From a virus (taxonomy: Duplodnaviria > Heunggongvirae > Uroviricota > Caudoviricetes), in IMG/VR virus record IMGVR_UViG_2778261646_000017, positions 1-16,102 of that record: a stretch of 16,102 bases of DNA. One strand, given 5' to 3'. This document shows positions 1,611 through 16,102 of the stretch, one piece after another; positions within the stretch are counted from its first letter, which is position 1, and each line of letters starts with the position of its first letter. The notes under the pieces are model-generated. The model saw nothing but the letters and a program-made list of their open reading frames with translations. It searched no databases and was not told the origin of the DNA. Both the position numbers and the translations under genes were made by a program.

Positions 1611-1900
1611 GAAATATACAGGCGGGTAATCTTTCCAGGGGGAAGCGCACCAATTCATGAGGGGCGTTAATGTCGATATGGGGATCCCCATAACGGGGCT
1701 ACCGGATTTTTTTTCCGGTTAACTGTTAATCAGGCTGGTGGGTTTTACCTGTTCGGTAGGTGTTATGATTATCGTAATACCTTTCCCCCAGTGGGGTAAA
1801 AGCTCCAACCGTAACGATGTTCGTTGTGGTTGCCTTGATGGTCTGCGTGGTCATTATGACCATTCCCAAAAACAACATATTCGTTGTTTTTCTGTGCCCC

Positions 1901-2330: not shown

Positions 2331-2599
2331 CGCTCCGGCTTCTTCCAGTGGTACGTTATTTTTTCTTTCTCCCGATGCAGTTCAACGCGGCGATTGTAGG
2401 CCAGCATTTCAAGAACGCGGATCCGTATGTTGCGCATATCAACATCATTAAGCTGGATACCATCACGGCGCATCACCTCAGCAACAACACGCGCATAATT
2501 TTCGGCTGTCACGCTGTCCGGCTGCGTGGTCTGTTCGTCAGCCTGCTGGTTGATTCCAGAGACGCGGCGGATTAATCGCAGTATTTCGGCTTCTGTCAT
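2318..2599 (-). CDS. Hypothetical protein, 93 aa (orphan gene after TerL; candidate accessory gene)
   Basis: ORF MTEAEILRLIRRVSGINQQADEQ...; GAGG Shine-Dalgarno 9 nt upstream of ATG at 2599; enteric-like codon usage; starts 14 bp after the TerL stop. No family recognised. Confidence 0.55.
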   Translation of the reverse strand: MTEAEILRLIRRVSGINQQADEQTTQPDSVTAENYARVVAEVMRRDGIQLNDVDMRNIRIRVLEMLAYNRRVELHREKEKITYHWKKPERLRR

Positions 2600-2612
2600 G
2601 CTGCTGACCTCA

Positions 2613-4274
2613 TTACACCCCGCTAAATTCTTCCAGTTTCTGGCGGTGGCTGTCGCTTATATCAAAAGCAAAATCCTCATGCTCTGCCTGAAATGTACCA
2701 AACGCCATCAGTGCCGCTACGCTCGGGTCTATCTTGTTCGGTGATTTTTTCTTGTTCGGCTTGATATTGGCGTTCGCGTCACTCTGCATCACGACGTTAC
2801 TCATCGACCAGGACAACACCGGATCGCCACGATGCACAATCACCCTGCGGTTAACAAAAACTTCGAACGATTTCGCCGCCGGACTGAATCTGAGGTAGGT
2901 TTGCGGGAACGGCTCCACCTCAAAGCCTGCCCCCTGTAATTGCGTTCTCAGGTGCGTGGCGTTCCACGTATCGAAGCCCACCCGCCTGATATTAAATTTC
3001 TCGGCGTCCTGCATGATGTCATCTCTGATCCGGTCGTAATCAATGCAGTCGCCAGGCGTTGTGCGTATCCAGCCCGCTTTAGCCCACTGGCGATAGACAG
3101 CGCGATTTTTATTGGCTGGGTTCTGTAGCTGGAACTCCGGCAGATAATGACGGGAAACCAGCATGATATTTTTACCGACCGGAAAGGCATAGCATACGCT
3201 GGAAATATCGCTGGTTGATGATAAGTCCAGCCCCGCGTAACACTCCTGACCGTGTAAATCTTCCTCCGTGAACGTTCCGGTACACTCAGCCCATGCACCA
3301 TTACCCATCCACGGGGTAGTCCCCTGACACCAGATATTAAATCGCTTTGTCATCATCTCCACCCACTGCGACGGAATACCCCGCGCTTTCTGGATGGTTG
3401 AGGCCAGTTTTTCACGATCCACGGAAACATCGATGTTAGGGTTAGCCTTTATCCACATCGCCGGATCATCAACCTCGTTTTCGTCGTCCAGTTCGTAAAT
3501 CAGTACAAAAATTGAATCGTTGACCTCTTCGCCGTCCAGGATCTGGCAGCAATAATCATAGTGCTGCTTACAGGCTGAAACGACGTTACTGCCCGATGTG
3601 GTAATGGCAAATAACAGCCCTTCGGGACGTGCGCCCATCCCCATATCAAGTGCGGAATAAACCCCGTTGTCTGGGTGCAGGTGATATTCATCCACAATGG
3701 CAAGACTCGGGTTTGTCCCCTCAATGGTTGCCGCTTTTGCTGCCAGTGGCTTTAACAGGCTGTTGGTTTTCGGGTGTATCACCTTATGCGCCTGAATATT
3801 CACCCGCCTGCGTAACGGTCGGGATAAAAGGCACATCTGACGCGCATCATCAAAGACGATCCGCGCCTGGTCACGGCTCACCGCTGCGGTGTAGATATCC
3901 TGCTGACCGTTCTCCATAATCAGAAACCAGTTAGCCAGAATCGCGGCGGTCGTGGATTTCGCATTTTTGCGCGGCACTTCGATAAAGGCGCTCGTGTATT
4001 TGCGCCGTCCGGTGGCCTTAACCTTAAAGCCGAGGATGCACGCAAAGGCGAACTGCTGCCACGGCTCCAGCTCAATGGGTCTGCCACGCATCGGTCCTTT
4101 TACGTGCGGGCACACCCTGGAAAAGGCAATAAACCGCTCCACAACCTCACGATCGAACGTGTAAAGGGGGCTTTTAAGGTCCGAAAAGTACCGTTTAACA
4201 GCCTGTTTTAACCGTTTACAGGCCGGAATTTTGCCCGTTTTTACGTCTTCTGCGTACTTATTCCAGGCGGTCAA
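2613..4274 (-). CDS. terL: Terminase large subunit (Terminase_1-type ATPase/nuclease), 553 aa
   Basis: N-terminus YAEDVKTGKIPACKRLKQAVKRYFSDL typical of TerL; Walker A VPRKNAKST; Walker B-like LAIVDEYH; apparent TTG start inside the TerS 3' end with AGAGGA SD (17-nt overlap with TerS). Confidence 0.93.
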   Translation of the reverse strand: MTAWNKYAEDVKTGKIPACKRLKQAVKRYFSDLKSPLYTFDREVVERFIAFSRVCPHVKGPMRGRPIELEPWQQFAFACILGFKVKATGRRKYTSAFIEVPRKNAKSTTAAILANWFLIMENGQQDIYTAAVSRDQARIVFDDARQMCLLSRPLRRRVNIQAHKVIHPKTNSLLKPLAAKAATIEGTNPSLAIVDEYHLHPDNGVYSALDMGMGARPEGLLFAITTSGSNVVSACKQHYDYCCQILDGEEVNDSIFVLIYELDDENEVDDPAMWIKANPNIDVSVDREKLASTIQKARGIPSQWVEMMTKRFNIWCQGTTPWMGNGAWAECTGTFTEEDLHGQECYAGLDLSSTSDISSVCYAFPVGKNIMLVSRHYLPEFQLQNPANKNRAVYRQWAKAGWIRTTPGDCIDYDRIRDDIMQDAEKFNIRRVGFDTWNATHLRTQLQGAGFEVEPFPQTYLRFSPAAKSFEVFVNRRVIVHRGDPVLSWSMSNVVMQSDANANIKPNKKKSPNKIDPSVAALMAFGTFQAEHEDFAFDISDSHRQKLEEFSGV

Positions 4275-4614
4275 GCTCGTCCTCTTCTTCTGTTTCCGGT
4301 GGATTTTTACGGCGGCTTATCGGGTCAAAACCGAGCAAGGAGGCCATTTTTATCATCACTCTTTCAGCGTCGGATTTTGCGCTTAATGCGGGGTTTCTGC
4401 TCTCGCCGCCCTGACTGTTAACAATGCTGAACCCGCGCGCCGCAAGGTCTGCAACGGCTTTCCGGTAAATGGAGTAGTTGACGCAATACAGTTCCAGATT
4501 GCTCCAGTCGGCGGGGGTCAGGTCTCCCCGTTCCGCAAGCTGCCGCGATTTTTCCCGCCACTGCTTCACGGCGATATCATCCAGGTAGGCGGGGGCTTTC
4601 GGTGGTCTTGCCAT
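4258..4614 (-). CDS. terS: Terminase small subunit, P27-family-like, 118 aa
   Basis: MARPPKAPAYLDDIAVKQWREKSRQLAERGDLTPADWSNLELYCVNYSIY...NPALSAKSDAERVMIKMASLLGFDP with acidic C-terminus; directly upstream of and overlapping TerL. Confidence 0.8.
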   Translation of the reverse strand: MARPPKAPAYLDDIAVKQWREKSRQLAERGDLTPADWSNLELYCVNYSIYRKAVADLAARGFSIVNSQGGESRNPALSAKSDAERVMIKMASLLGFDPISRRKNPPETEEEDELDRLE

Positions 4615-4665
4615 GCTTATTTTTCGTCAGATTATTTTTCAAAAAATTCCCGTGCATAAAAATTT

Positions 4666-4724
4666 GGGGAGGCGTTCGGTGCCCGGCGGGGTCGGGTTTG
4701 TCCTGAAAACGCCCCCCACCCCGT
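4666..4724. other. Putative cos (cohesive-end) site: GC-rich segment with partial dyad symmetry in the 288-bp HNH-TerS intergenic gap
   Basis: ggggaggcgttcggtgcccggcggggtcgggtttgtcctgaaaacgccccccacccc; it is the only long non-coding gap in an otherwise overlap-coupled operon; HK97-like cos phages place cos between the HNH gene and terS. Confidence 0.4.
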
Positions 4725-4902
4725 CATACAGCCTCATCAGCGATTGCGGAAACATTCCATAACCTCGCGGTCACGGTCGGTTAATCGCTTCGCTGTGATG
4801 CGTTCTGCGCGTCCTGACGCTTTATCTTTATGCCCTGTTTCCTGTGTCTTCCATGCGTCACGCTGCCTTATAAGTCCACGGATAAGGCGGTTTTGTTCCC
4901 GC

Positions 4903-5343
4903 TCATTCATCAGCGTCATACATCCAGTTATTGCGGTTAGCGGCCCGTTCTTCCTCTTCATGAAATCCACCTGCGGCACGCTTGCTTTTTGTTGCCGGAT
5001 CAAGCCATTTCGTTTTCTGGTTATGACACGCCTGGCACAATGGTTGATGGTTCCATTCGGGCCAGAAGAGAACATCATCACCGCCATTAATCGGGATAAT
5101 GTGATCCACCACCACGGCGGGCGTATATATCCCCTTCTCAAGGCATCGCACGCATAACGGGTTTTTACTCAGATACATGGCGCGGTATTTGTCCCACTGT
5201 CTGGAGTACCCACGCGCGCGGCGGTGTCCTCGTCTGGCATCCTCTGCACGCCATGCCGCCCGCCTGTGCTCCTCACACTTGCCGGACTTCACGCGCCTGT
5301 TACAGCCTGGTTCTGTGCATCGTCTTAATGGTTGCCACGGCAT
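4903..5343 (-). CDS. HNH endonuclease (packaging-associated), 146 aa
   Basis: Cys pairs CTEPGC...C and CVRC...C, HNH core VVDHIIPINGGDD...NHQPLCQACHNQKT; GGGGGTG SD; sits immediately upstream of the cos-like gap and terS. Confidence 0.88.
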   Translation of the reverse strand: MPWQPLRRCTEPGCNRRVKSGKCEEHRRAAWRAEDARRGHRRARGYSRQWDKYRAMYLSKNPLCVRCLEKGIYTPAVVVDHIIPINGGDDVLFWPEWNHQPLCQACHNQKTKWLDPATKSKRAAGGFHEEEERAANRNNWMYDADE

Positions 5344-5639
5344 CAGTACACCCCCACATCACGGTAAGCCGTCCAGAGCGCGCCAATCGTCATGGGTACG
5401 CGCGTTTTTGCGTTATCCGCTACCAGCTGGCGATTCTCGTACAGGTGAGCGATAAACATCATGCAGCCAATCTTTATGGCTGGCGTGAACTCCAGCCCGT
5501 CATCAAAGCGCCTGCCTATATGTATCTGGCACGCCTCAAGCGATGCGGCAATGTATCCGCTGATTAACTGGTCTTCCTCGTCGCCATCGATGCGGCAATG
5601 GAGTTTCACTTCTTCCAGGGTGATAAGTTCTTCTGTCAT
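5343..5639 (-). CDS. gp6-like head-tail connector protein, 98 aa
   Basis: N-terminal LITLEEVKLHCRIDGDEEDQLISGYIAASLEACQ matches the gp6-like connector signature; GAGGG SD; ATGA start-stop overlap with the upstream adaptor gene. Confidence 0.75.
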   Translation of the reverse strand: MTEELITLEEVKLHCRIDGDEEDQLISGYIAASLEACQIHIGRRFDDGLEFTPAIKIGCMMFIAHLYENRQLVADNAKTRVPMTIGALWTAYRDVGVY

Positions 5640-5974
5640 TTTTCCGCGCCCTCACGACAAAGAATTTCAAGGCGTGTCCTGGCGGCATCCGGCAGCGGCT
5701 GCCCGATGATATTCAGTACACGCCCCGCCAGCGGCCCCGTATTGACCTTTATCCGGCTGGTGGCGTTGATGTCCTTCCTGTAGCGTATCCATATCCTTAC
5801 CGTTCCAGTCGCCAGTTCTGCACCCGATGAAATGGCCTCCTTGCTGCTGATCATGTTCACGCTTGCCCAGAGTGTGTGACCGTCCACCCACGTTTCGAGT
5901 ATTTCGCCGGTTATATCCCTGGTCTGTTTCAGGGTCTGAATCGTTACCCTGTCACGCAGTCGCCCTATGTTCAT
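5636..5974 (-). CDS. Head-tail adaptor / head-closure (joining) protein, about 112 aa
   Basis: GRLRDRVTIQ...TGEILETW...LWASV...RIWIRYR pattern of the phage head-tail joining family; start chosen at ATG 5974, which forms an ATGA overlap with the portal stop (the ORF track's longer start at 6016 has no SD). Confidence 0.75.
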   Translation of the reverse strand: MNIGRLRDRVTIQTLKQTRDITGEILETWVDGHTLWASVNMISSKEAISSGAELATGTVRIWIRYRKDINATSRIKVNTGPLAGRVLNIIGQPLPDAARTRLEILCREGAEK

Positions 5975-7182
5975 TCCGGTTTTTCTCCCTCGCTGATTTT
6001 TACTTCCTGTTTCCATGCCTGGCTGAACTCATCACCACCATCACGCGGGGACAGCCCTTCACGTTCGCGGGCTTCGTTCGGGCACATAACGCCGGATTTG
6101 ATGCCGCGTTCATAGGTGGCAAAGCGTTCGCCAGGTGTGGCCCGTAACAGGTCCGCGCTGTCAAACTCCACCTGATACCGGATACCAGGTACAGGTGAGG
6201 CCACCAGCAGGGCGTTTTTTATCTGCTGCTCAAAGTTCGCCAGCCACGGGCGCATCGTCATGGTGAGAAATGCGCGGCTTGCCTCGCTGAAATTGCTGTA
6301 GGTGCTGTTGCTGTATTCCTGCAAAAAAATCGGCGAGACGTTGAACATTCGGGCGATGTCTTCAATGGTGAAGCGACGGGAGGCCAGCCATTCAGCATCC
6401 TGATTACTCATGCCCAGCTGCTGATAGCTCATACCCCCTTCAAGGATGGGCGTTTTTCCGGCGTTTCTGGCCCCTTTGTAGCGTTCCAGTGCGGCTAATG
6501 CCTGTTTGCCCTTCACGCCGTCCAGCCATTCGCCTGACGTGATAACCCCTGCCGCCATCATGCCATCACGCATCACGCTCGCGCCGTGGCGTTGTTGGGC
6601 CAGCCCAAGCCCCAGCGATTCGCGGCAGATGGTTACAGGTGAGCGCCCCATAAAACCGTCATCCGTGGAGTAACGAAGGTGGAGAACCTCCCACGGTAAA
6701 TAGTTGCGGGTGTTTCCGGTGTAGGCGTCAGTGATGCAGTAGCGCCAGTTATGCTCACCTGTCTGCTCCACGTTCACCGACTGCGGCGGGTAAGGATGTA
6801 AAGCCACCGGAAAACCATCACGCCCCCACCGAATCACCGCATAAGCATTACCGTTTAACAGGCAGTGGCGGATCATCATTCGCTTAAACTGGTAGGGGGT
6901 TTGCCACGCGTTCGGGCGCTCGTTGAGGATGTGATCGACCGGATGAGAATCAAGCCACTCGCGGGCCTCCTTCCCCTTCTCATTGCGTACCAGGTACAGG
7001 TAACACGGCATGGTAGCCACCGCCTCAGAGATGACCGTCACGGCGTTCATGACGGCGGGCAGTGATTCCGCTGTCCCCGATGATACGTACTCACCCGCCC
7101 CCGTGTTCGATGTGCCGGCCAGCGCCATAAACTCATCAAGCGTCATGCTGCGCTGCTCTTTTTTTCTTCTGAAAGGCCACAT
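5971..7182 (-). CDS. Portal protein (HK97-family-like), 403 aa
   Basis: 403-aa ORF between protease and adaptor with portal-like features (…FNVSPIFLQEYSNSTYSNFSEASRAFLTMTMRPW…); GGGGGTG SD; start 1 nt after the protease stop. Confidence 0.9.
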   Translation of the reverse strand: MWPFRRKKEQRSMTLDEFMALAGTSNTGAGEYVSSGTAESLPAVMNAVTVISEAVATMPCYLYLVRNEKGKEAREWLDSHPVDHILNERPNAWQTPYQFKRMMIRHCLLNGNAYAVIRWGRDGFPVALHPYPPQSVNVEQTGEHNWRYCITDAYTGNTRNYLPWEVLHLRYSTDDGFMGRSPVTICRESLGLGLAQQRHGASVMRDGMMAAGVITSGEWLDGVKGKQALAALERYKGARNAGKTPILEGGMSYQQLGMSNQDAEWLASRRFTIEDIARMFNVSPIFLQEYSNSTYSNFSEASRAFLTMTMRPWLANFEQQIKNALLVASPVPGIRYQVEFDSADLLRATPGERFATYERGIKSGVMCPNEAREREGLSPRDGGDEFSQAWKQEVKISEGEKPE

Positions 7183-7183
7183 A

Positions 7184-7741
7184 TCACACCCCCGCTAAAT
7201 CCGCCCACCAGCGGCGATTATCCGCACGCGGCATTTTTTCGGGGTGCTGCTCGTACAGGGAGCGGCGGGCCAGCTCCACGCCAGAATCAGGGTAAGCCGG
7301 TACGGATGTAACGGTAATTTCGTACAGTTCCGCCACCAGCACGGTGCGCACGCATGGATCTGTTGTGGTATCCCATACATCCTTACGGGAGCGAAAGCCA
7401 AAGCTCATGCCGGATATATCACCTCGTTTAACCAGTTCGATAACGTCCCGCCCTGTACTGGTATCCGGTGGGGTCAGTTCAAAGCGTAACCCTGTGTCGT
7501 CCTCTTCCAGTTTCAGCGTGCCGGAACGGGTGCGCCCCAGTAACATGCTGTGGTCATGCTCATACAGGCCGCGAACGTCATTACCCGCTGCAAGCCATTC
7601 AGTAAACGCTCCCCGCTGGAATTTTTCGTAAAACTCCCCCCATAGCAGCTCTGAAAGGTTATCCCAGCGAACAACGTAGCCTGTAAGCGTGTTGCTGGCG
7701 CTGGTGGTGATTTCCGATGACCGGATTTCCATACTCTTCAT
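7184..7741 (-). CDS. Prohead maturation protease (HK97-family-like), about 185 aa
   Basis: MKSMEIRSSEITT...GYVVRWDNLSE...DHS..LLGRTRSGTL...GDISGMSFGF motifs; start placed at ATG 7741 (GGTGA SD) because the longer start at 7756 lies directly on the tail of the upstream terminator. Confidence 0.85.
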   Translation of the reverse strand: MKSMEIRSSEITTSASNTLTGYVVRWDNLSELLWGEFYEKFQRGAFTEWLAAGNDVRGLYEHDHSMLLGRTRSGTLKLEEDDTGLRFELTPPDTSTGRDVIELVKRGDISGMSFGFRSRKDVWDTTTDPCVRTVLVAELYEITVTSVPAYPDSGVELARRSLYEQHPEKMPRADNRRWWADLAGV

Positions 7742-7756
7742 AATTTTTTCACCCAT

Positions 7757-7786
7757 AAAACACTAAAGGGGCTTTTAAGCCCCTTC
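7757..7786 (-). terminator. Rho-independent terminator between the capsid and protease genes
   Basis: On the - strand: AAGGGGCT-TAAA-AGCCCCTT stem-loop followed by TTAGTGTTTT, 10 nt after the capsid stop. Confidence 0.6.
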
Positions 7787-7795
7787 TGTATGCTG

Positions 7796-8953
7796 TTAAT
7801 CGTCGTCCTGTGGCAGTTCCAGAATCTTGATCGCGTTCGAATCCACCACGCCACCGCCTAAATATTTCTGCGTGAAAATTTTGATGAAGCCCGGCTCTGT
7901 GAGGTTGTCCGGTCTGGTGCGAACACCTGTTTCGTGATCAACAATGTAGTAACCGCGTTTGAAGTCACCCAGGGCAATAACGTTATCAGGCATAAACTCC
8001 AGATATTCGACCGGAAGGCCCAGCAACGTATCAGGATCACCCGCCTGTAAACGGTCGCGCCAGATGTAATCACCGTTCGCGTTCTTCACCTTCTGAAGTT
8101 TTGCGGCCGTCGTGGAGTTAACCACCCAGACCGCGTTTTTGCGATATTTTTTATGTAATGCAAATTTCAGGTCGATCAGCGGGTCCGCAGATGTCCACGC
8201 CAGAGATTCGGAAGGTTTAATTACCTGTAACGTACCAAAATCACGCTCTTTGTCGTTCTTCTCTGCACGGGGTACGGATAAAAAGCCTTTTGCTTTTTTG
8301 TCACCGTCGCCCACAACCAGATCGCTTTCTTCGGTTTCCGTGAAGGTGTCGCCAATCTCACCCGTCAGCCATGAAAGGATGTCCACATCGGAAAAATCCA
8401 CGATTTCCTGTGTGGTGCGCGGGTACGCATAGACCGGATACAGCTTAATGCTCACCTCGTTAATCTGCGGGGTGCTGGTCTGTTCGCGTGCCTTACCCTC
8501 TTCACCGTGGTTAACGGTCGCACCGCCAGCGGAAACAAGCTGCTTAAACTCGTTGCTGCTGATTTTCTTCACGGTACAGATGCGGCGCATGGTGGATTCA
8601 TCCGCCAGCATTCGCATGATTTCGGTGTTCAGCTCGGGGATAACGGTATAACCACCATCAGCGGGAACGCCTGTACTTAATGCGCGGGTTTCACCTGTCA
8701 GGATGTAGTTTCGTAGTTCTGCGGGGTCAGTGGTCTGACTGCTTTTACCTGGCTTGCTGCGCTCTTCGTCTGCAATGGCTTCAAGGCGGGAAATGTCTTT
8801 ATCGAGGGATTCAGCTTTAGCGCGTAATTCGTCAAATTTTGCGCCCTCAGCATCGTTAAGACTGCGGTTTTCTTTTTCCGCGTTCTCCAGCATGTCGCGC
8901 ATCTGATTTTTAATGGCGGTTTTCTGCTGGCGTAATTCGATTATTCTCGGCAT
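7796..8953 (-). CDS. Major capsid protein, HK97-fold with N-terminal coiled-coil scaffold (delta) domain, 385 aa
   Basis: N-terminal 60 aa heptad-rich (LRQQKTAIKNQMRDMLENAEKENRSLNDAEGAKFDELRAKAESLDKDISRLEA); C-terminal body with capsid-like features (…GYYIVDHETGV…); followed by a terminator. Confidence 0.93.
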   Translation of the reverse strand: MPRIIELRQQKTAIKNQMRDMLENAEKENRSLNDAEGAKFDELRAKAESLDKDISRLEAIADEERSKPGKSSQTTDPAELRNYILTGETRALSTGVPADGGYTVIPELNTEIMRMLADESTMRRICTVKKISSNEFKQLVSAGGATVNHGEEGKAREQTSTPQINEVSIKLYPVYAYPRTTQEIVDFSDVDILSWLTGEIGDTFTETEESDLVVGDGDKKAKGFLSVPRAEKNDKERDFGTLQVIKPSESLAWTSADPLIDLKFALHKKYRKNAVWVVNSTTAAKLQKVKNANGDYIWRDRLQAGDPDTLLGLPVEYLEFMPDNVIALGDFKRGYYIVDHETGVRTRPDNLTEPGFIKIFTQKYLGGGVVDSNAIKILELPQDDD

Positions 8954-8960
8954 AAAAAAA

Positions 8961-8990
8961 GTCCTGGGGTTAAGTAAGGAACTCCAGGAC
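8961..8990 (-). promoter_or_regulatory. Stem-loop plus U7 tract immediately 5' of the capsid ATG; the stem contains the AGGA Shine-Dalgarno
   Basis: - strand reads GTCCTGG-(16-nt loop)-CCAGGAC-TTTTTTT-ATG; the only SD-like sequence (AGGA, 8 nt before ATG) is in the 3' arm of the 7-bp stem. Confidence 0.5.
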
Positions 8991-9167
8991 GCGGCAAAAA
9001 CTCAACCGTTTTTCATAAGGAAATCAGCAATCGCACCGATCGTTTTCCCGCCTGGTAATGAATATTGGCGAGAACATTAACAGGCGGAAAAGTGGCCCCA
9101 GCGTCCTGGCACCACGGGCGAGAATAATCATGATTCAGTTCGGGTAAAATATGCCGATCCGGTCAGC

Positions 9168-9193
9168 GAACAACGTGGAACAACCACGAACAA
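9168..9193. promoter_or_regulatory. Phased hexamer element GAACAA-cgtg-GAACAA-ccac-GAACAA, about 215 bp upstream of the capsid gene
   Basis: Three perfect GAACAA hexamers at 10-bp spacing; 9169-9193 is identical to the reverse complement of 14781-14805. Confidence 0.5.
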
Positions 9194-9210
9194 ATAATTT
9201 ACAAAACATG

Positions 9211-9235
9211 ACAAAAAGCCGGATTGCTCCGGCTG
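9211..9235 (-). terminator. Rho-independent terminator after the PerC-like gene (end of the early operon)
   Basis: - strand: AGCCGGA-GCAA-TCCGGCT followed by TTTTTGT, 6 nt after the stop. Confidence 0.6.
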
Positions 9236-9240
9236 TGTGA

Positions 9241-9513
9241 TTATCTGTCCTGGTAATTTCGCCATATTTCATCACCAGCACCATCCATACCCATTTCGGC
9301 ATAAGTGCGATCGACCGCCTTTTTCAGGTCTCCGTAATTATCCGGCGGCTCCGGTGGCCTCTGTGCCTTCCTGGAACATTCCAGCCGTCGCATCGTGATG
9401 TGATGCCGTTCCTTGTCTGTCTCCACCAGTTGCATGACTTCACCCCATCGCGCCGACGCTCTCCGGTAAAAGCCTTTCGCCTCCAGTTCTTCCGCTATGC
9501 GGTCATGTACCAT
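9241..9513 (-). CDS. PerC-like small transcriptional activator (putative), 90 aa
   Basis: MVHDRIAEELEAKGFYRRASARWGEVM... resembles my recollection of the PerC-family N-terminal signature (LE..G.WRRAA.RW); strong GAGGGGGG SD; family assignment not verified. Confidence 0.55.
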   Translation of the reverse strand: MVHDRIAEELEAKGFYRRASARWGEVMQLVETDKERHHITMRRLECSRKAQRPPEPPDNYGDLKKAVDRTYAEMGMDGAGDEIWRNYQDR

Positions 9514-9522
9514 CGCCCCCCC

Positions 9523-9933
9523 TCAGAACGGAATATCATCACCGTAAGGGTCATCGCCTCCCGCTGGTGGCTGATTACCCTGTGTGCCTGTGGTCTTGCG
9601 CCGGCTCCCACCAGGTCGCGCCGTTCTGGCACTGATTACGCTGTCTGCAATAACCTGCCAGCCCTGCCGCGTTTCGCCGTTCTGGCCTGTCCACTGGCTT
9701 ACCTGCATGTTACCCGCCACGCTCACCAGCTCGCCTTTGTGGTGTTTTGCCAGTGCGTCGGCCTGTCTGCCAAACGCCAGGACGGATAACCACATCGTCG
9801 CCTGTCCGTCATCTGCCTGATTGCACGGCAGGGGGACCGCCATGCTTGCCATAGCCATTTGTGTGCCCTTGCTGGTGGTCTTTAACTGCGGGTCAGCCAC
9901 CAGCCGCCCGTAAGCGGCTATCTGTGCTGTCAT
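9523..9933 (-). CDS. ssb: Single-stranded DNA-binding protein, divergent, with canonical acidic DDIPF C-terminal tail, 136 aa
   Basis: OB-fold-like core (YGRLVADPQLK...WLSVLAFGRQAD...KGELVSVAGNMQVSQW), Gly/Pro-rich linker and C-terminal DDPYGDDIPF; ATGA overlap with the upstream gene. Confidence 0.8.
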   Translation of the reverse strand: MTAQIAAYGRLVADPQLKTTSKGTQMAMASMAVPLPCNQADDGQATMWLSVLAFGRQADALAKHHKGELVSVAGNMQVSQWTGQNGETRQGWQVIADSVISARTARPGGSRRKTTGTQGNQPPAGGDDPYGDDIPF

Positions 9934-10187
9934 GATTCCACCTCTCCGGTTTTAACGTTGATGGTTGTTACCTGTTCCGCTTCGGCAATCTCCCGTTCCG
10001 TCAGCGTGGCAAAGTTTGCCGCCGCCGTGGTCATGAATGCGCTTATCAGGTCGGGATGTGCTTTCGCGTATCCTTCCCCCGTGTTGCGGTCGATGATTTT
10101 TATCGCCACTCTCAGCCAGTGCTCTGTAAGGTCAATGGCGCGGTTATGCTGCTTCTTCTGATTATTAAGTTTTCCTGATGTGCGCAT
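9930..10187 (-). CDS. Hypothetical protein, 85 aa
   Basis: ORF MRTSGKLNNQKKQHNRAIDLTEHW...; GAGGGGG SD; translationally coupled to ssb. No family recognised. Confidence 0.55.
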   Translation of the reverse strand: MRTSGKLNNQKKQHNRAIDLTEHWLRVAIKIIDRNTGEGYAKAHPDLISAFMTTAAANFATLTEREIAEAEQVTTINVKTGEVES

Positions 10188-10229
10188 TTTTATTTTTACC
10201 CCCTCGTTTAAAAAGTTTTGAGTTGTGCC

Positions 10230-10465
10230 TCCCCTTGTCTACCTTATCTACCTTACTGGCTCTCATGCCAGTAATGGCGCGGCTTTCAGCGGGGTAGAGT
10301 GCTTTTATCCACTATCTACCCCGTATCTACCTCCCTGTCTGATTCAGGTAAAATCAGGTAGAGAGGGTAGATAGTAGGTAGACAGTGAAAAAAGGCTGTC
10401 TACCTAAGTTAATATACTGAATTAAATGTATTTTTCTTTACTCAGGTAGACAGGGTAGACAGCCA
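10230..10465. repeat. Iteron-type replication origin: at least 11 copies of GGTAGA / TCTACC in both orientations flanking an AT-rich core
   Basis: tgtctacc, tatctacc (x3), ggtagag, aggtagagagggtagatagtaggtagacag, gtctacct, then AT-rich taagttaatatactgaattaaatgtatttttctttac, then aggtagacagggtagacag; immediately 3' of the primase gene. Confidence 0.7.
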
Positions 10466-10475
10466 TTGCAAAAAA

Positions 10476-12224
10476 TTATAAAAACGCGTCGCAATCGTCT
10501 GTTGTTATTGCGTTAGTCTGCGTTACTCCCTTAACTTTCCGCGTAATATATTCATGTCCGTAAACTTTCGCGGCTGGCTTCATAGCCTTGCCAAAGTCAT
10601 TTACGTTTAGCGGTTTGCTCCTGCCTGCGTATGCCATAAACGCCAGATAGACGCGGTAAAGGCTGTTTCTGGTCGTGTACTTCACTGAATCGCCACCGCC
10701 ACCCATCATCAGGCCGCGCGCTTCCTCCAGAAAATTCAGGAACTGGCAAAACTCAATAACCGGATCCGTCTGTTGCTTTATTGCCAGTGCTTCATCACCG
10801 TCACGCTGTTCCAGTAGTAAAGCCCGTGCCTTCTCAGGGTCGGTAAAGTTCGCCAGCAAGCGGCGGATAATGACAGGGATTTCAGCCGCGATCTTTTCCG
10901 GTAGCTCCCTGTCTTTTTCTGCCTCGCTTACGATATTGTCGAAGCGGAAAATAACCCGACGACGTGACACGCCTCCGGCCCGTTCGGTGAATATCATCGG
11001 GTTGTTATTGGTCGCCAGCACCACCGCCCTGATTACCGTAGTGAAACGCTTTTCATATTTCGGGTTGATTTCCACGGGGTCGCCGCCCGTGATTTTCTTG
11101 ATGCCCGTGCCTTCGCCTGTATATTTCGGCTGGTCTGCCAGGACGATAAGACGACTCCCGACAACCTGCGCACGCCCACCAGCATCATCAAGCGATGTCA
11201 TTTCCGCGCTTACCGTGTTTTGTTTCCCCGCTAAAAGGCTGGCGATGTGGGTGAATGTACTTTTGCCGCTCCCGCCGTCTCCGGTGGCCTCAATAAACAT
11301 CTGCCAGTCGTACCGGTTCGCCATAATCATGTACAGCGCGGCACATATACGCATCATCTTGCGCTGGTCTTTTCCGGCTGCGTGATCAAGCCATTTATGA
11401 AAGTTTGGCGCGTTATCGCGGATGTTCTCCCCAGGTGCTGGTGGCGTGTACTCAATGCCGTTGTGCGTGGTGATCCAGTTCTCCGGCGTGTGCGGGGAAA
11501 ATTCCCCCGTTTTCAGGTCAAGCGCACCATTGGCGAACGGCAACAAATCGCCGGACGGCTCGCCCATTGGTTCGGCAATAACTTTTAACGCTTCCACGGC
11601 GTTATTGATTACGCGCTTGCTGAAAGTGGCCCTGTGCTCTGAATAGATCGCCACCATTTCGCGGCTAAGTTCCATTGTGCTGACCGGACACCATACCCCG
11701 CCGCGCCATACGTGAACGATTTCACTTTCCGGATGCACACAAACGCCATCAAATCGACCAGCAAGCATCTGTGCGCGCTCACTGTCTGCCATTTGTGCCA
11801 GTTGCGTATTTTTCTGCTCCGGCATGGTAAGCCCTGCGGCAATATTTTCACGCTCAGCATTCAGATAGCGCCGCCAGTTTTCACACTTCTGGACGTGCAT
11901 TCCTTCGGGGTAAAAATTTGCGTCCTGAATATCTGCCGCCGCCAGCTTCTGACCAATCTTTTTGGTCTCCACCAAATCCAGTTCTCCGGCCTGGTACAGC
12001 CTTACGCGCTTTTTCCCATCCGGAACAATTTTCAGCGCATCAAGTTCGGCAAGCTGATTTGGCCCAAGCCACACAGGCGGCACATTATCGCCGGATGCGG
12101 GGCCGTCCTGCTCCTGCCACTGTTTTGCATGTGACCACGCATCACTACCCGCGAAAATAATTACCTCTGTGTCTTTGTGTTTTATTCCGCGTGGCTGTTT
12201 TTTTACGTTCGGTGCCAGTTTCAT
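10476..12224 (-). CDS. Replication protein: primase / SF3-type helicase (P4 alpha-like, PICI Pri-Rep-like), 582 aa
   Basis: Walker A GDGGSGKST, Walker B-like RLIVLAD, N-terminal primase-like region; ATGA-coupled to the upstream small gene; iterons directly downstream. Confidence 0.88.
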   Translation of the reverse strand: MKLAPNVKKQPRGIKHKDTEVIIFAGSDAWSHAKQWQEQDGPASGDNVPPVWLGPNQLAELDALKIVPDGKKRVRLYQAGELDLVETKKIGQKLAAADIQDANFYPEGMHVQKCENWRRYLNAERENIAAGLTMPEQKNTQLAQMADSERAQMLAGRFDGVCVHPESEIVHVWRGGVWCPVSTMELSREMVAIYSEHRATFSKRVINNAVEALKVIAEPMGEPSGDLLPFANGALDLKTGEFSPHTPENWITTHNGIEYTPPAPGENIRDNAPNFHKWLDHAAGKDQRKMMRICAALYMIMANRYDWQMFIEATGDGGSGKSTFTHIASLLAGKQNTVSAEMTSLDDAGGRAQVVGSRLIVLADQPKYTGEGTGIKKITGGDPVEINPKYEKRFTTVIRAVVLATNNNPMIFTERAGGVSRRRVIFRFDNIVSEAEKDRELPEKIAAEIPVIIRRLLANFTDPEKARALLLEQRDGDEALAIKQQTDPVIEFCQFLNFLEEARGLMMGGGGDSVKYTTRNSLYRVYLAFMAYAGRSKPLNVNDFGKAMKPAAKVYGHEYITRKVKGVTQTNAITTDDCDAFL

Positions 12225-12520
12225 TTTTTACCCCTGAATACGTTAAGCATCTTTTTTATTTCCTGAATATTGGCGCGTGCTTTCTCCCTGCTGGTTGGTT
12301 TACTGCGGGGCGCTGCCTGTACCAGAGAAAAATCACGCCGAAACTGATAAACAGGCATCACGCAATCATATTCGTAGCCTTCACGACGGTAGGTGATGCG
12401 CCGTTCTGCCACGCCTTTAATCGTTACCATGCCGCCATATTTATCGCGGTAAATATCGCCGTTCATAAATTCAGGACGAGCGGGGCCGCTGGCAGTAACG
12501 CCAGAATTTTTATTTTTCAT
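12221..12520 (-). CDS. Hypothetical protein, 99 aa
   Basis: ORF MKNKNSGVTASGPARPEFMNGDIYRDKYGGMVTIKGVAERRITYRREGYEYDCVMPVYQF...; basic C-terminus; no family assigned with confidence. Confidence 0.55.
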   Translation of the reverse strand: MKNKNSGVTASGPARPEFMNGDIYRDKYGGMVTIKGVAERRITYRREGYEYDCVMPVYQFRRDFSLVQAAPRSKPTSREKARANIQEIKKMLNVFRGKK

Positions 12521-12525
12521 GTTTT

Positions 12526-12753
12526 TTATTCTCCGGTGTGCTGCGCTTTATTATTCTCGTGAATTGCCATCACTGTATTTAATTCATTAATAACAGGCGT
12601 TAATAGCGTACGCACGGCAGAAAACATCATTGAATCAGATTCATCGCCACTTTCCGGCACATCAATTAACTTAAGTAGTAATGCGTCCATTTCCTTTGCG
12701 CGGATTAATGCGTTTTCAGAATGAACAAGAACATCAAAGGGTATTTTATGCAT
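12526..12753 (-). CDS. Hypothetical protein, 75 aa (start at the internal ATG with AGGGGGGAG SD)
   Basis: MHKIPFDVLVHSENALIRAKEMDALLLKLIDVPESGDESD...; the longer start offered by the ORF track (12855) has no SD and overlaps the upstream gene. Confidence 0.5.
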   Translation of the reverse strand: MHKIPFDVLVHSENALIRAKEMDALLLKLIDVPESGDESDSMMFSAVRTLLTPVINELNTVMAIHENNKAQHTGE

Positions 12754-12916
12754 GACTCCCCCCCTGGCGAATACGGGCGACAAAAATAAGATGTGCGTGC
12801 GGCAGCTGTGCACGTGCTTCGCGCTCAGTGGCAGCGGTAACGGTGAATATTGCAATACTGTCTGTCAGGCACTGCATAAAGCGCCAGACAAAATAAGGGC
12901 GTGCGAATACAGCCAT
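12746..12916 (-). CDS. Small protein, 56 aa, paralog of the gene at 13203-13406 (possibly the Icd-like cell-division-inhibitor family; unverified)
   Basis: MAVFARPYFVWRFMQCLTDSIAIFTVTAATEREARAQLPHAHLIFVARIRQGGSHA aligns with the C-terminal 50 aa of the upstream paralog (WRF...EARxQ.P......F.ARIRQG.SHA). The reading frame stays open upstream to 13210, so the N-terminus is uncertain. Confidence 0.5.
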   Translation of the reverse strand: MAVFARPYFVWRFMQCLTDSIAIFTVTAATEREARAQLPHAHLIFVARIRQGGSHA

Positions 12917-13202
12917 GTGAAAGGCTCCCAGATGAATTTTAAGGAGTCTCGCTACTACGCTGCTAAACATGGTGGCGAGACGTAACAGGGTTAGCAGACT
13001 GGTCATCTGGAAACCAGCGAGCACAAAGGCTCCCCCGTTACGCCCCGCCATAATGCGGGTATGGGTAGGTTTACGGACACAAAAAAACCGCTTATCGGAT
13101 GTGGGCGGCTGTCCGCCAGATGTATTCAGGCTGCTAAACCCGGTCGCCATGTGGGCGACGGGGGAAGCATACAGCCCCGTGATAATTTTTTGCAAGCGGT
13201 TT

Positions 13203-13406
13203 TTACGCATGATGTGACCCCTGACGAATACGGGCGGCGAATACCATCACGCAGCCAGCCGGGGATTGCTGGCGTGCCTCCTGTTCGCTGGTGGCCTCAA
13301 TGGTAATCACGCGCGGTTGTGCCGTGCTCAGGGCGATAAAACGCCAGATGTATTTATTCAGGTTGTGCGAGTCCCGCCCTTGCGGGTGTGTGGTATGATT
13401 TCTCAT
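13203..13406 (-). CDS. Small protein, 67 aa, paralog of the gene at 12746-12916 (possibly Icd-like; unverified)
   Basis: MRNHTTHPQGRDSHNLNKYIWRFIALSTAQPRVITIEATSEQEARQQSPAGCVMVFAARIRQGSHHA; GAGG SD 6 nt upstream of ATG at 13406; it is the C-terminal part of a 352-aa track ORF whose remainder I reject. Confidence 0.55.
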   Translation of the reverse strand: MRNHTTHPQGRDSHNLNKYIWRFIALSTAQPRVITIEATSEQEARQQSPAGCVMVFAARIRQGSHHA

Positions 13407-13501
13407 AGCTACCTCGATACTTTCGCTATCGTTGGTGGTTAGAGGCTGCGAAAGGACGGCAATCCTTTTCAGCCTCGTTTGCATTGAGTGATAGTTACTC
13501 A

Positions 13502-13582
13502 ACTGGATTCCAGTATAATCATCAAGTGGAATCCACTTCAAGCATTTTGTTTTGGTCTTTTTCGTGTATACTGGATTCCAGT
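13502..13582. promoter_or_regulatory. Three palindromic operators with core TGGAWTCCA, plus -10-like hexamers, in the divergent control region
   Basis: ACTGGA-T-TCCAGT at 13502-13514, AAGTGGA-A-TCCACTT at 13524-13538, ACTGGA-T-TCCAGT at 13570-13582; TATAAT at 13514-13519. Confidence 0.6.
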
Positions 13583-13602
13583 AATCACAAAGGAAACCGG
13601 AA

Positions 13603-13782
13603 ATGGAAAGAGACCATATCAATAACAAATCACAAAAATTACAGGCTCGCGCCCCGCATGAAGTTGTTGAGGCAATGGAGCAAGTCAAAGAAACAGGCGA
13701 GAGCACTGCGCAATTTATCGTTACAGCCATGCGCGGCGAGATCAAACGCCGCCAGCGTCGCAAAGCCAAAGAATCAGAATAA
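13603..13782 (+). CDS. Small ribbon-helix-helix-like DNA-binding protein (putative regulator), 59 aa; not in the ORF track because it is under 60 aa
   Basis: MERDHINNKSQKLQARAPHEVVEAMEQVKETGESTAQFIVTAMRGEIKRRQRRKAKESE; AGGAAA SD 8 nt upstream; predicted strand-helix-helix pattern; operators directly upstream. Confidence 0.5.
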   Translation: MERDHINNKSQKLQARAPHEVVEAMEQVKETGESTAQFIVTAMRGEIKRRQRRKAKESE

Positions 13783-13839
13783 TCACTATCAGCGCCGTGG
13801 CGTGAGGTACTCCGGCGCATTGCTTTACAGGTCAGTACT

Positions 13840-14049
13840 ATGAGCAAAAAACACCGATCAGCAGATGAGATTTTTGCAGAACAACGAAGATTGCTTTTGC
13901 AAAGTATCATTTCACGCCAGCAAGAGAAGGCGCGAGCTAAACAAATGCCACCAAATACAGAACCAGCGCCTACAAGATTTGCGCTTGATGACTTTCTCGA
14001 TAAACACCCCAGGGTAATGAAAGCAAACAAAAACCGCCCACCAGGCTGA
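13840..14049 (+). CDS. Hypothetical protein, 69 aa
   Basis: MSKKHRSADEIFAEQRRLLLQSIISRQQEKARAKQ...; weak AGGT SD; followed by a + strand terminator. No family recognised. Confidence 0.4.
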   Translation: MSKKHRSADEIFAEQRRLLLQSIISRQQEKARAKQMPPNTEPAPTRFALDDFLDKHPRVMKANKNRPPG

Positions 14050-14140
14050 TCACATTGCCCACCAGCCTGATAGCGGCTATCATCCCCGTGCTTATGTTTG
14101 AGATCACACACACAAACGGCGCAGCGGGTTATCTGTTCAG

Positions 14141-14173
14141 AAAGGCGGCTCCATTTCAGGGCCGCTTTTTTTA
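14141..14173 (+). terminator. Rho-independent terminator for the two small + strand genes
   Basis: AAAGGCGGC-(11-nt loop)-GCCGC followed by TTTTTTT on the + strand. Confidence 0.55.
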
Positions 14174-14318
14174 TTCCTGAAAAACCCCAATTTTGTTGTT
14201 TTTCAGTTTCACCAGGGCGAACGAATCCCCGCCCACGTTCTGGCGTATATTCAATCTTCATGGTTATAGCTCTGTGTTCAGATGATTGATGTGTGGCGGC
14301 TGCGTGCCGCCAGCGTGA

Positions 14319-14507
14319 TTAATGAACTGCCTTGCAGCTATCCTTCCAGGCCAGAACCTCGGATAAAGACCAGCCAACGGAACGACCGCCAAGTTTACGA
14401 CGTGATGGGAATTGTCCGGCCTTTTCCAGGCGGTAGCGACACGTACGGCTAAGGCCGGTTAGTTTTTCGCATTCTTTTTCACGTATAAACCGATCAGTGC
14501 TTAACAC
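14319..14507 (-). CDS. alpA: AlpA-family transcriptional regulator / excisionase-like HTH protein (62 aa from GTG; track ORF extends to a TTG at 14588)
   Basis: DRFIREKECEKLTGLSRTCRYRLEKAGQFPSRRKLGGRSVGWSLSEVLAWK matches the AlpA HTH signature (TGLSRST.YR....G.FP...KLG.R.V.W); GTG at 14507 has a strong AAAGGGGGG SD 5 nt upstream. Confidence 0.8.
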   Translation of the reverse strand: MLSTDRFIREKECEKLTGLSRTCRYRLEKAGQFPSRRKLGGRSVGWSLSEVLAWKDSCKAVH

Positions 14508-14780
14508 TATTGCCCCCCTTTCGTTTCTTAAAGAGTCATCAGGTGTCTTATTGTGTCGTATTGTTCCCGCTAGAGTGATGAATGGCAAATATTGAGGATG
14601 TATGATTTACAGAAAATGAAACAGTAAGAATAAAATCTTTTAAATTCATGTTAATACAAAGGCATAAAATATTGTTTCATGCCTTTTTTCTCACGCGTTA
14701 AAGCGTTATTCGCTAATGTATAAAAAAACAGTCACACAAATAAAATCAGTCACTTATAAACCTGTGTGCTTTTTCGCCTC

Positions 14781-14826
14781 TTGTTCGTGGTTGTTCCACG
14801 TTGTTTCACATTGTTCTCCGTTGTAT
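14781..14826. promoter_or_regulatory. Phased hexamer element: five TTGTTY hexamers at exact 10-bp spacing, between int and alpA
   Basis: + strand TTGTTC-gtgg-TTGTTC-cacg-TTGTTT-caca-TTGTTC-tccg-TTGTAT; the first 25 nt are the exact reverse complement of 9169-9193. Confidence 0.55.
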
Positions 14827-14872
14827 CTGTGTGCTTATCCAGTATGCGCATACTGAAAAAACACGAAAAAAA

Positions 14873-16102
14873 TTATTTTCTTCTGGCTGCTGGTAGTGCG
14901 GTTACGTTTTCATGTGTTCCCGCCAGTATCCCTAACCGCTCCATCCACATATCCAGCGCATTGCGTTTAGCATCCAGATAACGGGAATGATTATAAACTC
15001 GCTGCATTCCTGGCATCTGGTGGCCTGTAAGCTGCTCCACGACGTGAGGATCCACGCCTAAATCGCTCAGCATCGTTGTAAAGGTGCGCCGGATGTCATG
15101 TAGTGACCAGTGAGGGTGATTTAGCCTCCTGTGCGCTAATCTGCCGTACTGCGACACGCTTGTTTCCTGTTTCACTTCCCCCAGCAATAAGCCCGTGTGC
15201 CTGTTCTGCTCCACCAGCTGCGTGACGAACGGCAGTATTGCTTCCGGTATGGGCCGGAATATTGCCACCTTCGTTTTGCTGTGTTCTTTCGGCACGGTCC
15301 AGAGCATTTCGGTAAAATCCCACTCGCTGATCTCCGATAACCTCAGTTCTACCGTCCGGCATCCGAACACAATCAGGAGGCGGATTAACGCGATGTAGTA
15401 GGGGGAGAATATTTTTTTGTCCAGTGCCTGCAATAATTCGCCCAGTTCTTTGGTGCTTAAGACACGCTCGCTTATATCCAGTTTTTTCCCAACGTCCGCC
15501 ACACTCATATCATCAAGAACGTTGCTGATTGCATAGCGCCGCCTCCGGCAGAACTTAAGCGCCTGTTTGCACGTCTGTAGCAAGAATCCGGCAGTAACAG
15601 GCGTTCGCTTTGCCACCTGGTCAAAACAGGCCAGCCAGTGCCGTAGCTCGCATTTATCCAGCGGCATAGCACCAATGTGCTGTATTACGTGATTATTAAG
15701 GCGCTTTTTCAGGGCGGCATAATCCACGCGGTTTTCCTTTGCGTACGACTCAAGCCAGTAGGTGAGCGCATCGCCAACCGTTACCGGCTTTAACGCTTCC
15801 TGTACGGTGTAATTAAGCTCATGACGTGGATTTTTCCCCTCTGCCAGCCATGCGCGACACTGGGCGGCTTTTTCCCTGGCTGATTTCAGGCTCAGATCAG
15901 GATAATTTCCCAGCTTAATGCGTTCCGGTGGTGCCCCCCTTCCCGTTCCGGCCCTGTAAGTGAAATACCAGGTTAAAAGGCCACTGGTTGAATGCCTGAC
16001 GCTCAGGTTTCCACCGTCATTAAGAAAGGCTGTTTTTTGGGCGGGTGTGCCGTTGATTTTCCTCAGCTGTGTATCGCTCAGTTTGTTAAGTGCTCTGCTC
16101 AT
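14873..16102 (-). CDS. int: Tyrosine recombinase / integrase, P4-type (409 aa; start codon at the window edge, could extend further)
   Basis: N-terminal arm-binding-like domain (LSDTQLRKI...GLLTWYFTYRAG), catalytic region with HDIRRTF...LGHQ-like...RVYNHSRY (R-H-R-Y residues). Confidence 0.92.
   Translation of the reverse strand: MSRALNKLSDTQLRKINGTPAQKTAFLNDGGNLSVRHSTSGLLTWYFTYRAGTGRGAPPERIKLGNYPDLSLKSAREKAAQCRAWLAEGKNPRHELNYTVQEALKPVTVGDALTYWLESYAKENRVDYAALKKRLNNHVIQHIGAMPLDKCELRHWLACFDQVAKRTPVTAGFLLQTCKQALKFCRRRRYAISNVLDDMSVADVGKKLDISERVLSTKELGELLQALDKKIFSPYYIALIRLLIVFGCRTVELRLSEISEWDFTEMLWTVPKEHSKTKVAIFRPIPEAILPFVTQLVEQNRHTGLLLGEVKQETSVSQYGRLAHRRLNHPHWSLHDIRRTFTTMLSDLGVDPHVVEQLTGHQMPGMQRVYNHSRYLDAKRNALDMWMERLGILAGTHENVTALPAARRK

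Follow-up and report, generated by a model that had tools for sequence, protein, structure and literature searches.

We consider here two small genes on a stretch of viral DNA of 16,102 nucleotides (nt), which we refer to as the window (IMG/VR virus record IMGVR_UViG_2778261646_000017, positions 1 to 16,102; Caudoviricetes). Both genes lie on the minus strand, as do all of the features described below unless otherwise stated, between a pair of Icd-like open reading frames (ORFs) and the gene for a primase-helicase. One encodes a protein of 75 amino acids (aa; 12526-12753) and the other a protein of 99 aa (12221-12520). A preliminary description of the window, made from its letters without database searches, had placed the two genes at these positions, and our analysis confirms them. 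The window is a phage-inducible chromosomal island of the capsid-forming kind (cf-PICI); it belongs to the EcCIEDL933 / O-island 51 family and has roxA and phoQ as its chromosomal neighbours. Judging from its sequence, the 99-aa gene is an allele of rgdR that carries the tripeptide NGD; the 75-aa gene encodes an acidic protein, predicted to fold as a helical hairpin, and it occupies the slot that epsilon holds in the regulatory architecture shared with satellite phage P4. We are nearly certain of these identities of genes and element. The best explanation that we can offer as a whole, which joins the identities to the mechanism proposed below, falls in our judgment just short of an even call.

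The genes in this part of the window form a tightly packed run, in the order Icd-like ORF, 75-aa gene, rgdR and replication gene (rep). The ‘paralog pair’ that the preliminary description placed at the head of this run is indeed present, and both of its members match the Icd-like model NF033153. The stop of the nearer member and the start of the 75-aa gene overlap by 8 nt (ATGCATAA, 12746-12753, with the ATG of the 75-aa gene at 12753), and a G-rich Shine-Dalgarno (SD) sequence for the 75-aa gene (AGGGGGGGAG, 12756-12765) is encoded by the last codons of that same Icd-like ORF, an arrangement already proposed in the preliminary description and borne out by reading the sequence. A gap of 5 nt separates the stop of the 75-aa gene from the ATG of rgdR, a spacing that recurs in most related loci, and the GGAG that serves as the SD of rgdR (12531-12534) falls within the codons that end the 75-aa gene (..HTGE). 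At the final junction, rgdR and rep overlap by ATGA (12221-12224), where the stop TGA occupies 12223-12221 and the primase ATG 12224-12222; this overlap, too, had been reported before and is evident on direct reading. The AGGGG that forms the SD of rep (12231-12235) lies 6 nt before the primase ATG, within the last rgdR codons (FRGKK). RefSeq annotates the same two coding sequences (CDSs) in E. coli CE10.

Neither small gene could be assigned to a family in the preliminary description. This holds for the 75-aa gene, whose only family match is an unnamed PHROG, but it does not hold for the 99-aa gene. The 99-aa protein (isoelectric point, pI, 10.2) matches the Pfam family DUF4222 (PF13973) with 85.6 bits against a gathering cut-off of 27 (E = 1.7e-24), across profile positions 1-53 of 53, and it aligns over 99 aa, with no gaps and 84% identity, to WP_000770148, which RefSeq names ‘prophage regulator RgdR’. 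The divergence between the two proteins is confined to one end: residues 36-99 are identical, and the 16 differences all fall in residues 1-35.

RgdR (ECs1581, 99 aa; Flockhart et al. 2012) activates LEE1 of the enterocyte effacement locus (LEE), and hence type III secretion (PMC3378721). Its over-expression represses motility and makes cells bind more Congo red, and its DNA binding is non-specific (PMC3378721); these phenotypes are known only for the O157 and CFT073 alleles (PMC3378721). Residue 20, the first of the RGD motif, matters for the activation of type III secretion, and the engineered change of this residue to N in ECs1581 (‘R20C20N’) reduced that activation (PMC3378721). In the window, residues 20-22 read NGD in place of the RGD tripeptide. 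Across 84 related loci, N is the commonest residue at position 20 (48 loci) and R the next (27), the rest having C, H or P. More distant members of DUF4222 mostly read P-G-D, and G21 and D22 are conserved features of the family. Neither residue 20 nor the N-terminus of RgdR co-varies strictly with the subtype of the hairpin gene upstream. Two long proteins with repeated weak DUF4222-like matches (P0220 and P0221) were also considered for the family, and we judged their matches to be spurious hits to low-complexity repeats.

The predicted structure of RgdR is that of a small barrel. In the AlphaFold2 (AF2) model, residues 21-70 have a predicted local distance difference test (pLDDT) score above 90 and comprise five strands and one short helix, and the basic helix that follows at the C-terminus is modelled with less confidence; the net charge of the protein is +11.5, that is, strongly basic. 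Foldseek comparison of this model returned KOW, PWWP, Hfq and SH3-type barrels, none of them significant (best PDB E = 0.024), and, in BFVD, small uncharacterised phage proteins and DUF1653 (best E = 4e-4), while the DUF4222 profile found nothing significant in the PDB. The predicted SH3/KOW-like barrel suits a small binder of nucleic acid or protein; it assigns no function.

The 75-aa protein is acidic (pI 5.0, net charge -6). Apart from phrog_2196, it has no family in Pfam or NCBIfam, and no Pfam match appears even at E = 10. Its homologues form 70 database clusters at 55-99% identity, most of the full 75-aa length, and those clusters that are named all come from E. coli or Shigella. The AF2 model (pLDDT 86.5) is a hairpin of two helices, residues 6-30 and 38-72, joined by an acidic loop; with this model Foldseek found only generic helical hairpins and no informative neighbour. 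In 78 of the 84 loci, a single BLAST-linked superfamily supplies the gene that stands directly upstream of rgdR, with subtypes of 71, 73, 75, 77 and 80 aa lying 5 or 17 nt from rgdR. A divergent member of 69 aa is found at the same position, and in the remaining loci its place is taken by unrelated small ORFs, of at least three kinds. As judged from these homologues, the hairpin family is restricted to islands of E. coli and Shigella and stands almost always directly upstream of rgdR. A scan of genome contigs with narrow patterns returned only two loci. We also considered whether the ‘75-aa unknown protein’ of P4-like satellites (PMC8628076) might be the same protein; it belongs to another family, as the hidden Markov model (HMM) of the hairpin family has no match in 80 P4-like loci.

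Both ORFs are, by their patterns of substitution, real genes under purifying selection. The ratio of nonsynonymous to synonymous substitution rates (dN/dS), computed against homologues, spans 0.15-0.5 over the two genes: it is ~0.29 for rgdR as a whole, 0.15 for its core and 0.49 for residues 1-35, and ~0.2-0.3 for divergent alleles of the 75-aa gene. A tblastn search of 50,697 phage genomes gave zero matches for the 99-aa protein, for the 75-aa protein and for a distant DUF4222 member (P0211); thus, both small proteins look satellite-specific. The defence models of PADLOC matched none of the seven small proteins of the region.

Directly upstream of the two genes lies a cassette of a kind known from immunity systems. 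A C4-type antisense RNA, of the family of the P1 c4 and P4 cI RNAs, is matched at full length at 12968-13055 (Rfam RF01695), with 72.7 bits against a gathering threshold of 45 (E = 8e-13), next to an Icd-like ORF. Two further elements make up a leader region at 13081-13172, both scoring under their Rfam gathering thresholds: an element resembling the c4-a1b1 target (13123-13172; RF03163, 45.5 bits, just under 46.7, E = 1e-9) and an isrK-like hairpin-terminator (13081-13159; RF01394, 36.8 bits, under 50). The first Icd-like copy (13203-13406) is a CDS of 67 aa in RefSeq and matches NF033153 with E = 1.9e-18. The second copy is annotated as an ORF of 154 aa (12746-13210), whose match to NF033153, when the full ORF is used, covers residues 107-149; its core (12746-12919), the last 57 aa, matches with E = 1.6e-14. 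Because only these last ~57 aa match the Icd-like model, the N-terminal two-thirds of the 154-aa ORF is probably non-coding. All three RNA elements lie inside those two-thirds.

This cassette gives the 75-aa gene a recognisable position. In P4, the order is isrK-like element, C4 match (inside an ORF labelled ‘cI gene product’ in the P4 record), Icd-like ORF, and then epsilon, with an overlap of 8 nt (GTGCGTAA). A Salmonella satellite has the order C4, Icd-like ORF, 60-aa ORF, epsilon-family gene and DUF4222 gene. Its epsilon-family protein of 76 aa matches PF25738 with E = 9e-10 (P4 epsilon itself, as a positive control, does so with E = 3e-50), and the start of its gene, ATGCGTAA, overlaps the 60-aa ORF. 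In the window, the 75-aa gene is likewise the first after the C4 RNA and the Icd-like ORF, overlaps the stop of the latter, and lies upstream of the primase gene. The 75-aa gene thus stands where epsilon does in a regulatory architecture common to these elements, although neither its sequence nor its profile places its product in PF25738.

The gene downstream, rep, encodes a replication protein of 582 aa (10476-12224), which comprises an N-terminal domain, D5_N, a DUF5906 P-loop and a Pox_D5 C-terminus, and is a primase/helicase of the P4 family. Across the related loci, the C-terminal modules of Rep fall into three unrelated classes (P4/D5-type, RepA-type and DUF927), and the 4-nt overlap of rgdR and rep is kept in 80 of 84 loci, whatever the class. 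It extends beyond E. coli: a Salmonella DUF4222 gene of 45% identity has a GTGA overlap with a RepA-type gene, the N-terminus of the RepA-type protein being different again. The N-terminal domain of Rep, ~105-160 aa in length, is common to all three classes at 46-83% identity (residues 1-160, encoded at 11745-12224, in the window, and loci L002, L003, L004 and L006); it has no match in Pfam or the PDB, and phrog_2850 alone in PHROG. One protein in the 50%-identity representative library (P0244, 179 aa) has DUF4222 and the primase zinc ribbon PF08273 in a single ORF, which could reflect either a genuine fusion or reading through from one gene into its neighbour. Immediately 3' of rep, a gap at 10188-10475 holds many GGTAGAC/GTCTACC iterons in both orientations. 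From its make-up, this gap is very likely the replication origin (ori) of the island, and its position fits the PICI ori as described in PMC6092414.

The wider window supports the classification of the element. Positions 9000-16102 are 100% identical to E. coli O7:K1 CE10, and DNA related to the window is found in ~1,900 complete E. coli genomes. Between phoQ and roxA of CE10, RefSeq lists as early genes an integrase, a helix-turn-helix (HTH)/AlpA regulator, three Icd-like genes, a hypothetical gene (which is our 75-aa gene), a DUF4222 gene and a DNA primase; next after the primase come a small ORF, an SSB (single-stranded DNA-binding protein) and PerC, and there follow major capsid, HK97 protease, portal, head closure, connector, HNH, TerS and TerL. 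The early genes also have matches in Pfam, NCBIfam and PHROG. The island thus has int, alpA and rep along with its own capsid, protease, portal, head-tail connectors, HNH, TerS and TerL, has no tail genes, and measures ~15 kb, which is the gene content by which Alqurainy et al. defined cf-PICIs, with EcCIEDL933 as the prototype (bioRxiv 10.1101/2022.09.08.507074). That a helper phage induces the island, and that the island is transferred in small capsids with helper tails, has been shown only for EcCIEDL933 (bioRxiv 10.1101/2022.09.08.507074).

The AlpA-family regulator lies at 14319-14507 (PF05930, E = 1.5e-16; a CDS in RefSeq). In Gram-negative PICIs, AlpA is the activator of the island genes, and no repressor has been identified (PMC6092414). 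Within the otherwise minus-strand early region there are two small plus-strand genes, at 13603-13782 (+) and 13840-14049 (+), one of the YlcI/YnfO family and the other hypothetical; they have a truncated Icd-like pseudogene (14039-14261) on one side and Icd-like copy 1 on the other. Downstream of the SSB gene lies a PerC-family gene (9241-9513, E = 2.7e-43). The island thereby holds two genes of LEE-regulator families, PerC and rgdR, though the strain type is without LEE; of the PerC homologues of other PICIs, some activate LEE1 and some silence it. In Salmonella enterica (L007; GCA_026091335.1, 1-10303), the DUF4222 satellite has a lambda-E-type major capsid gene on both sides, once as a 91-aa fragment and once as a 351-aa copy, and each of these adjoins an HDPD decoration gene. 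This suggests either that the satellite inserted itself within a capsid gene or that related elements stand there in tandem.

How might these parts work together? In P4, the cI RNA restrains the left operon. The C4 RNA of the window is, by analogy, probably an immunity RNA that gates the genes downstream of it. In the mechanism that we propose, this RNA would keep the string of Icd-like ORF, hairpin gene, rgdR and rep silent in the integrated state, as in P4 (cI RNA) and P1 (c4-icd-ant). Activation through AlpA, triggered by a helper, would then lead to read-through of the string (for the role of AlpA, see PMC6092414), and translation would be handed on from the Icd-like ORF to the 75-aa gene, to rgdR and to rep at their overlapping or near-abutting junctions. 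RgdR, made together with Rep, would be primarily a small DNA-binding accessory or regulator of island replication and of the early programme, in a role like that of P4 Cnr and not that of an essential initiator; what it does to the virulence and motility genes of the host would be a by-product of DNA binding of low specificity. The 75-aa hairpin, in its turn, would be a small protein-binding antagonist in the anti-repressor slot, and its target might be a repressor of a prophage or of the host, or RgdR itself, a possibility that we raise because the two proteins have opposite charges and are constantly adjacent. We put forward this functional model, comprising C4 gating, a coupled string, an accessory RgdR and an antagonist hairpin, tentatively, and we would sooner expect parts of it to fail than all of it to hold.

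Several observations weigh against this mechanism. Of ~76 related loci that could be evaluated, only 13 have a detectable C4 RNA, and it is absent from the O157 prototype locus; gating by C4 is therefore not general for rgdR islands. A scan for promoters and terminators gave counts no higher than expected from shuffled sequence. (Within that scan, itself not above chance overall, a weak sigma-70-like site, TCGCCA-16-TAAAAT, at 12743-12770 overlaps the start of the 75-aa gene, and through it rgdR might be expressed to some extent without induction.) The hairpin family has no matches in Pfam, the PDB or BFVD, and in four hhalign comparisons with epsilon, using progressively broader profiles, the probability was 0.2-0.9%. 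The published phenotypes of RgdR are all directed at the host, namely LEE1, motility and Congo red (PMC3378721). In EcCICFT073, rep under an arabinose-inducible promoter and ori were sufficient for the replication of a plasmid, the presence of c1493 in the clone being unstated (PMC6092414); RgdR is thus probably not an essential replication factor. Finally, the adjacency and overlap of the genes could both be maintained by operon compaction and linkage alone.

The proposed mechanism has to be set against other explanations of the same genes. One of these takes RgdR, alone or together with the hairpin, to be an accessory (‘moron’) regulator that is retained because it serves the bacterial host. 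It would reprogramme chromosomal genes, possibly by antagonising silencing of the H-NS type, and its adjacency to rep would be incidental. Raised LEE expression, lowered motility and raised curli together resemble the phenotype of an hns mutant, and by that resemblance RgdR might act against H-NS. As to effects on the host, LEE expression and type III secretion fall when rgdR or O-island 51 (OI-51) is deleted, loss of OI-51 also reduces adherence, which rgdR restores in trans, and the colonisation of sheep, and the over-expression phenotypes and non-specific DNA binding described above point the same way (PMC3378721). The PerC homologue of the same island belongs to a family whose members also act on LEE1. 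Against this, rgdR is found in islands of strains without LEE, including the O7:K1 background, and has been reported in all E. coli PICIs analysed, and its junction with rep is kept through swaps of the rep module and across genera, which would be unusual for dispensable cargo, usually located at the ends of islands. The island has a GC content of ~47-55% and is not AT-rich, so that it has no obvious need to relieve its own silencing; we had considered AT-richness as a reason for anti-silencing and dropped it on this account. The allele in the window, moreover, has N20, the very residue whose introduction into ECs1581 reduced the activation of type III secretion. We regard this explanation as unlikely.

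A second alternative takes the slot of the 75-aa gene more literally. Under it, the hairpin is a non-homologous analogue of P4 epsilon or P1 Ant, which inactivates the repressor of a resident helper prophage, so that an incoming or induced island can trigger its helper, and the C4 RNA keeps the hairpin off while the island is quiescent. The preliminary description had suggested, in a similar vein, that small genes in this position often mediate interference with a helper phage or its derepression. With regard to derepression by the 75-aa gene, position speaks in favour: the slot relative to the C4 and Icd-like cassette is that of epsilon, the geometry of the 8-nt overlap is alike, and in the Salmonella satellite a bona fide epsilon-family gene stands directly upstream of DUF4222. 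The slot is also far more variable than its neighbours, with five subtypes of 71-80 aa in addition to the at least three unrelated small ORFs, as would be expected of a determinant of specificity; a small acidic helical protein suits an inhibitor that binds protein; and the isrK-orf45-anrP module of Gifsy-1, in which a leader RNA and a small ORF precede a translationally dependent anti-repressor (PMC4825925), offers a precedent.

The epsilon profiles speak the other way, as every comparison stayed below 1%, and the hairpin resembles epsilon neither in sequence nor in profile and has no informative structural match. According to published work on PICIs, it is the helper that induces the island, via alpA, and not the reverse (PMC6092414). 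EcCIEDL933, whose genes include rgdR and one of the hairpin family, is reported neither to block its helper from reproducing nor to reduce helper titres (bioRxiv 10.1101/2022.09.08.507074), which also counts against the suggestion of helper interference in general; for the 99-aa gene, we find nothing in favour of either derepression or interference. The hairpin is, furthermore, tied to rgdR and not to the C4 and Icd-like cassette, since most hairpin loci have no detectable C4 RNA, and in O157 two other small genes come between the hairpin gene and the Icd-like ORF. We consider it doubtful, on balance, that the hairpin triggers helpers in this way.

A more ambitious version of our own model would treat hairpin, RgdR and Rep as one functional cassette. 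In that version the hypervariable hairpin would be a non-homologous anti-repressor of the epsilon/Ant type, directed against helper prophages or a host repressor; RgdR, translationally coupled to Rep, would set island replication or early transcription; and a C4-class RNA would be the missing immunity factor of Gram-negative PICIs in this type of island. All of these together we think quite improbable.

One might also suppose that one or both ORFs are non-functional, being chance ORFs or translated spacers that bring ribosomes to rep, as their shortness and the constraint that the SD of the next gene places on the C-terminal residues of each might suggest, but this most improbable of the explanations is effectively refuted by the conservation data, given that dN/dS lies well below 1, that ORF lengths are kept across 55-99% identity, that DUF4222 is conserved to ~30% identity in other genera, that both proteins have confident fold predictions, and that an orthologue of rgdR has published phenotypes.

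We return, then, to the proposed mechanism, in which RgdR serves the island and the C4 RNA gates the string. RgdR is presently filed as an ‘accessory’ regulator of virulence in enterohaemorrhagic E. coli (EHEC). The persistence of its junction with rep, across three unrelated helicase modules and across genera, argues that RgdR is a core part of the early and replication programme of the satellite, which would change how the effects on LEE and motility are to be read. The 75-aa family and the C4/Icd-like cassette, for their part, are concrete and inexpensive targets for the questions of what silences Gram-negative PICIs and whether PICIs can act on their helpers. The results are of use for curation regardless of the model, inasmuch as an ‘unassigned’ gene is an allele of a known regulator, and the 154-aa ORF annotated as Icd-like lies for the most part over RNA elements. 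DUF4222/RgdR and the cf-PICI family were already known; what is new here is one uncharacterised small-protein family and a regulatory-RNA context that we have not found discussed for PICIs; in the literature searched, C4 antisense RNA and PICIs are nowhere mentioned in one paper.

Among known systems, the closest is the O157:H7 island itself, variously called O-island 51, CP-933C or Sp7, to which EcCIEDL933 corresponds, at the same chromosomal site (PMC3378721). Its RgdR has the same length of 99 aa, the same DUF4222 family, the same family of island and the same roxA-phoQ site, and its gene likewise stands immediately upstream of the replication gene and overlaps it. The gene order of EcCIEDL933 (int, alpA, rep, capsid, protease, portal, connectors, HNH, TerS, TerL) and its attachment region are shared with the window. 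The two differ, however, in that the O157 protein has RGD where ours has NGD and the N-terminal third has diverged; in the rep allele, DUF927 there and P4/D5-type here; in the hairpin subtype, 80 aa there and 75 aa here; in the C4 RNA, which is detectable in the window and not in the O157-type locus examined; and in the host, which here is of O7:K1 type, without LEE.

The resemblance to P4 is one of arrangement. P4 epsilon, like the 75-aa protein, is small, and its gene likewise comes immediately after a C4-type RNA and an Icd-like ORF, overlaps the stop of that ORF by 8 nt, and belongs to an operon leading to a primase gene; but epsilon has 95 aa, not 75, and shares no detectable similarity of sequence or profile with the 75-aa protein, for which binding to a repressor would be an analogy only. 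RgdR, in a similar way, recalls Cnr, the product of P4 cnr, which we take to be ORF106: a small protein (~100 aa) encoded immediately upstream of the primase-helicase gene alpha, in the same operon. Nonetheless ORF106 matches DUF5375 (E = 3e-63) and is predicted from its sequence to be helical, whereas RgdR belongs to DUF4222, with a predicted beta-barrel. The copy-number role of Cnr is cited in PMC8628076. The 99-aa protein matches DUF4222 only, and not DUF5375, and the P4-like loci contain no member of DUF4222. A hidden member was sought in P4 ORF151, the gene after epsilon (L010, 7440-7895), and rejected (hhalign probability 6%, hmmsearch ~2-4 bits); ORF151 has two short motifs that look like those of DUF4222, in the same order (PGEIYR and RFLREFT).

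The cassette as a whole can be compared with the immI region of P1 and P7, c4-icd-ant, in which an antisense RNA is followed by a short ORF and by a downstream gene whose translation depends upon the short ORF. This region and isrK-orf45-anrP of Gifsy-1 share with the window the succession of RNA, short ORF and downstream gene, here represented by the C4 match and the Icd-like ORF. The difference lies in what comes next, for the position of ant is held in the window by a 75-aa hairpin unrelated to Ant or AnrP, and after it come rgdR and the replication gene.

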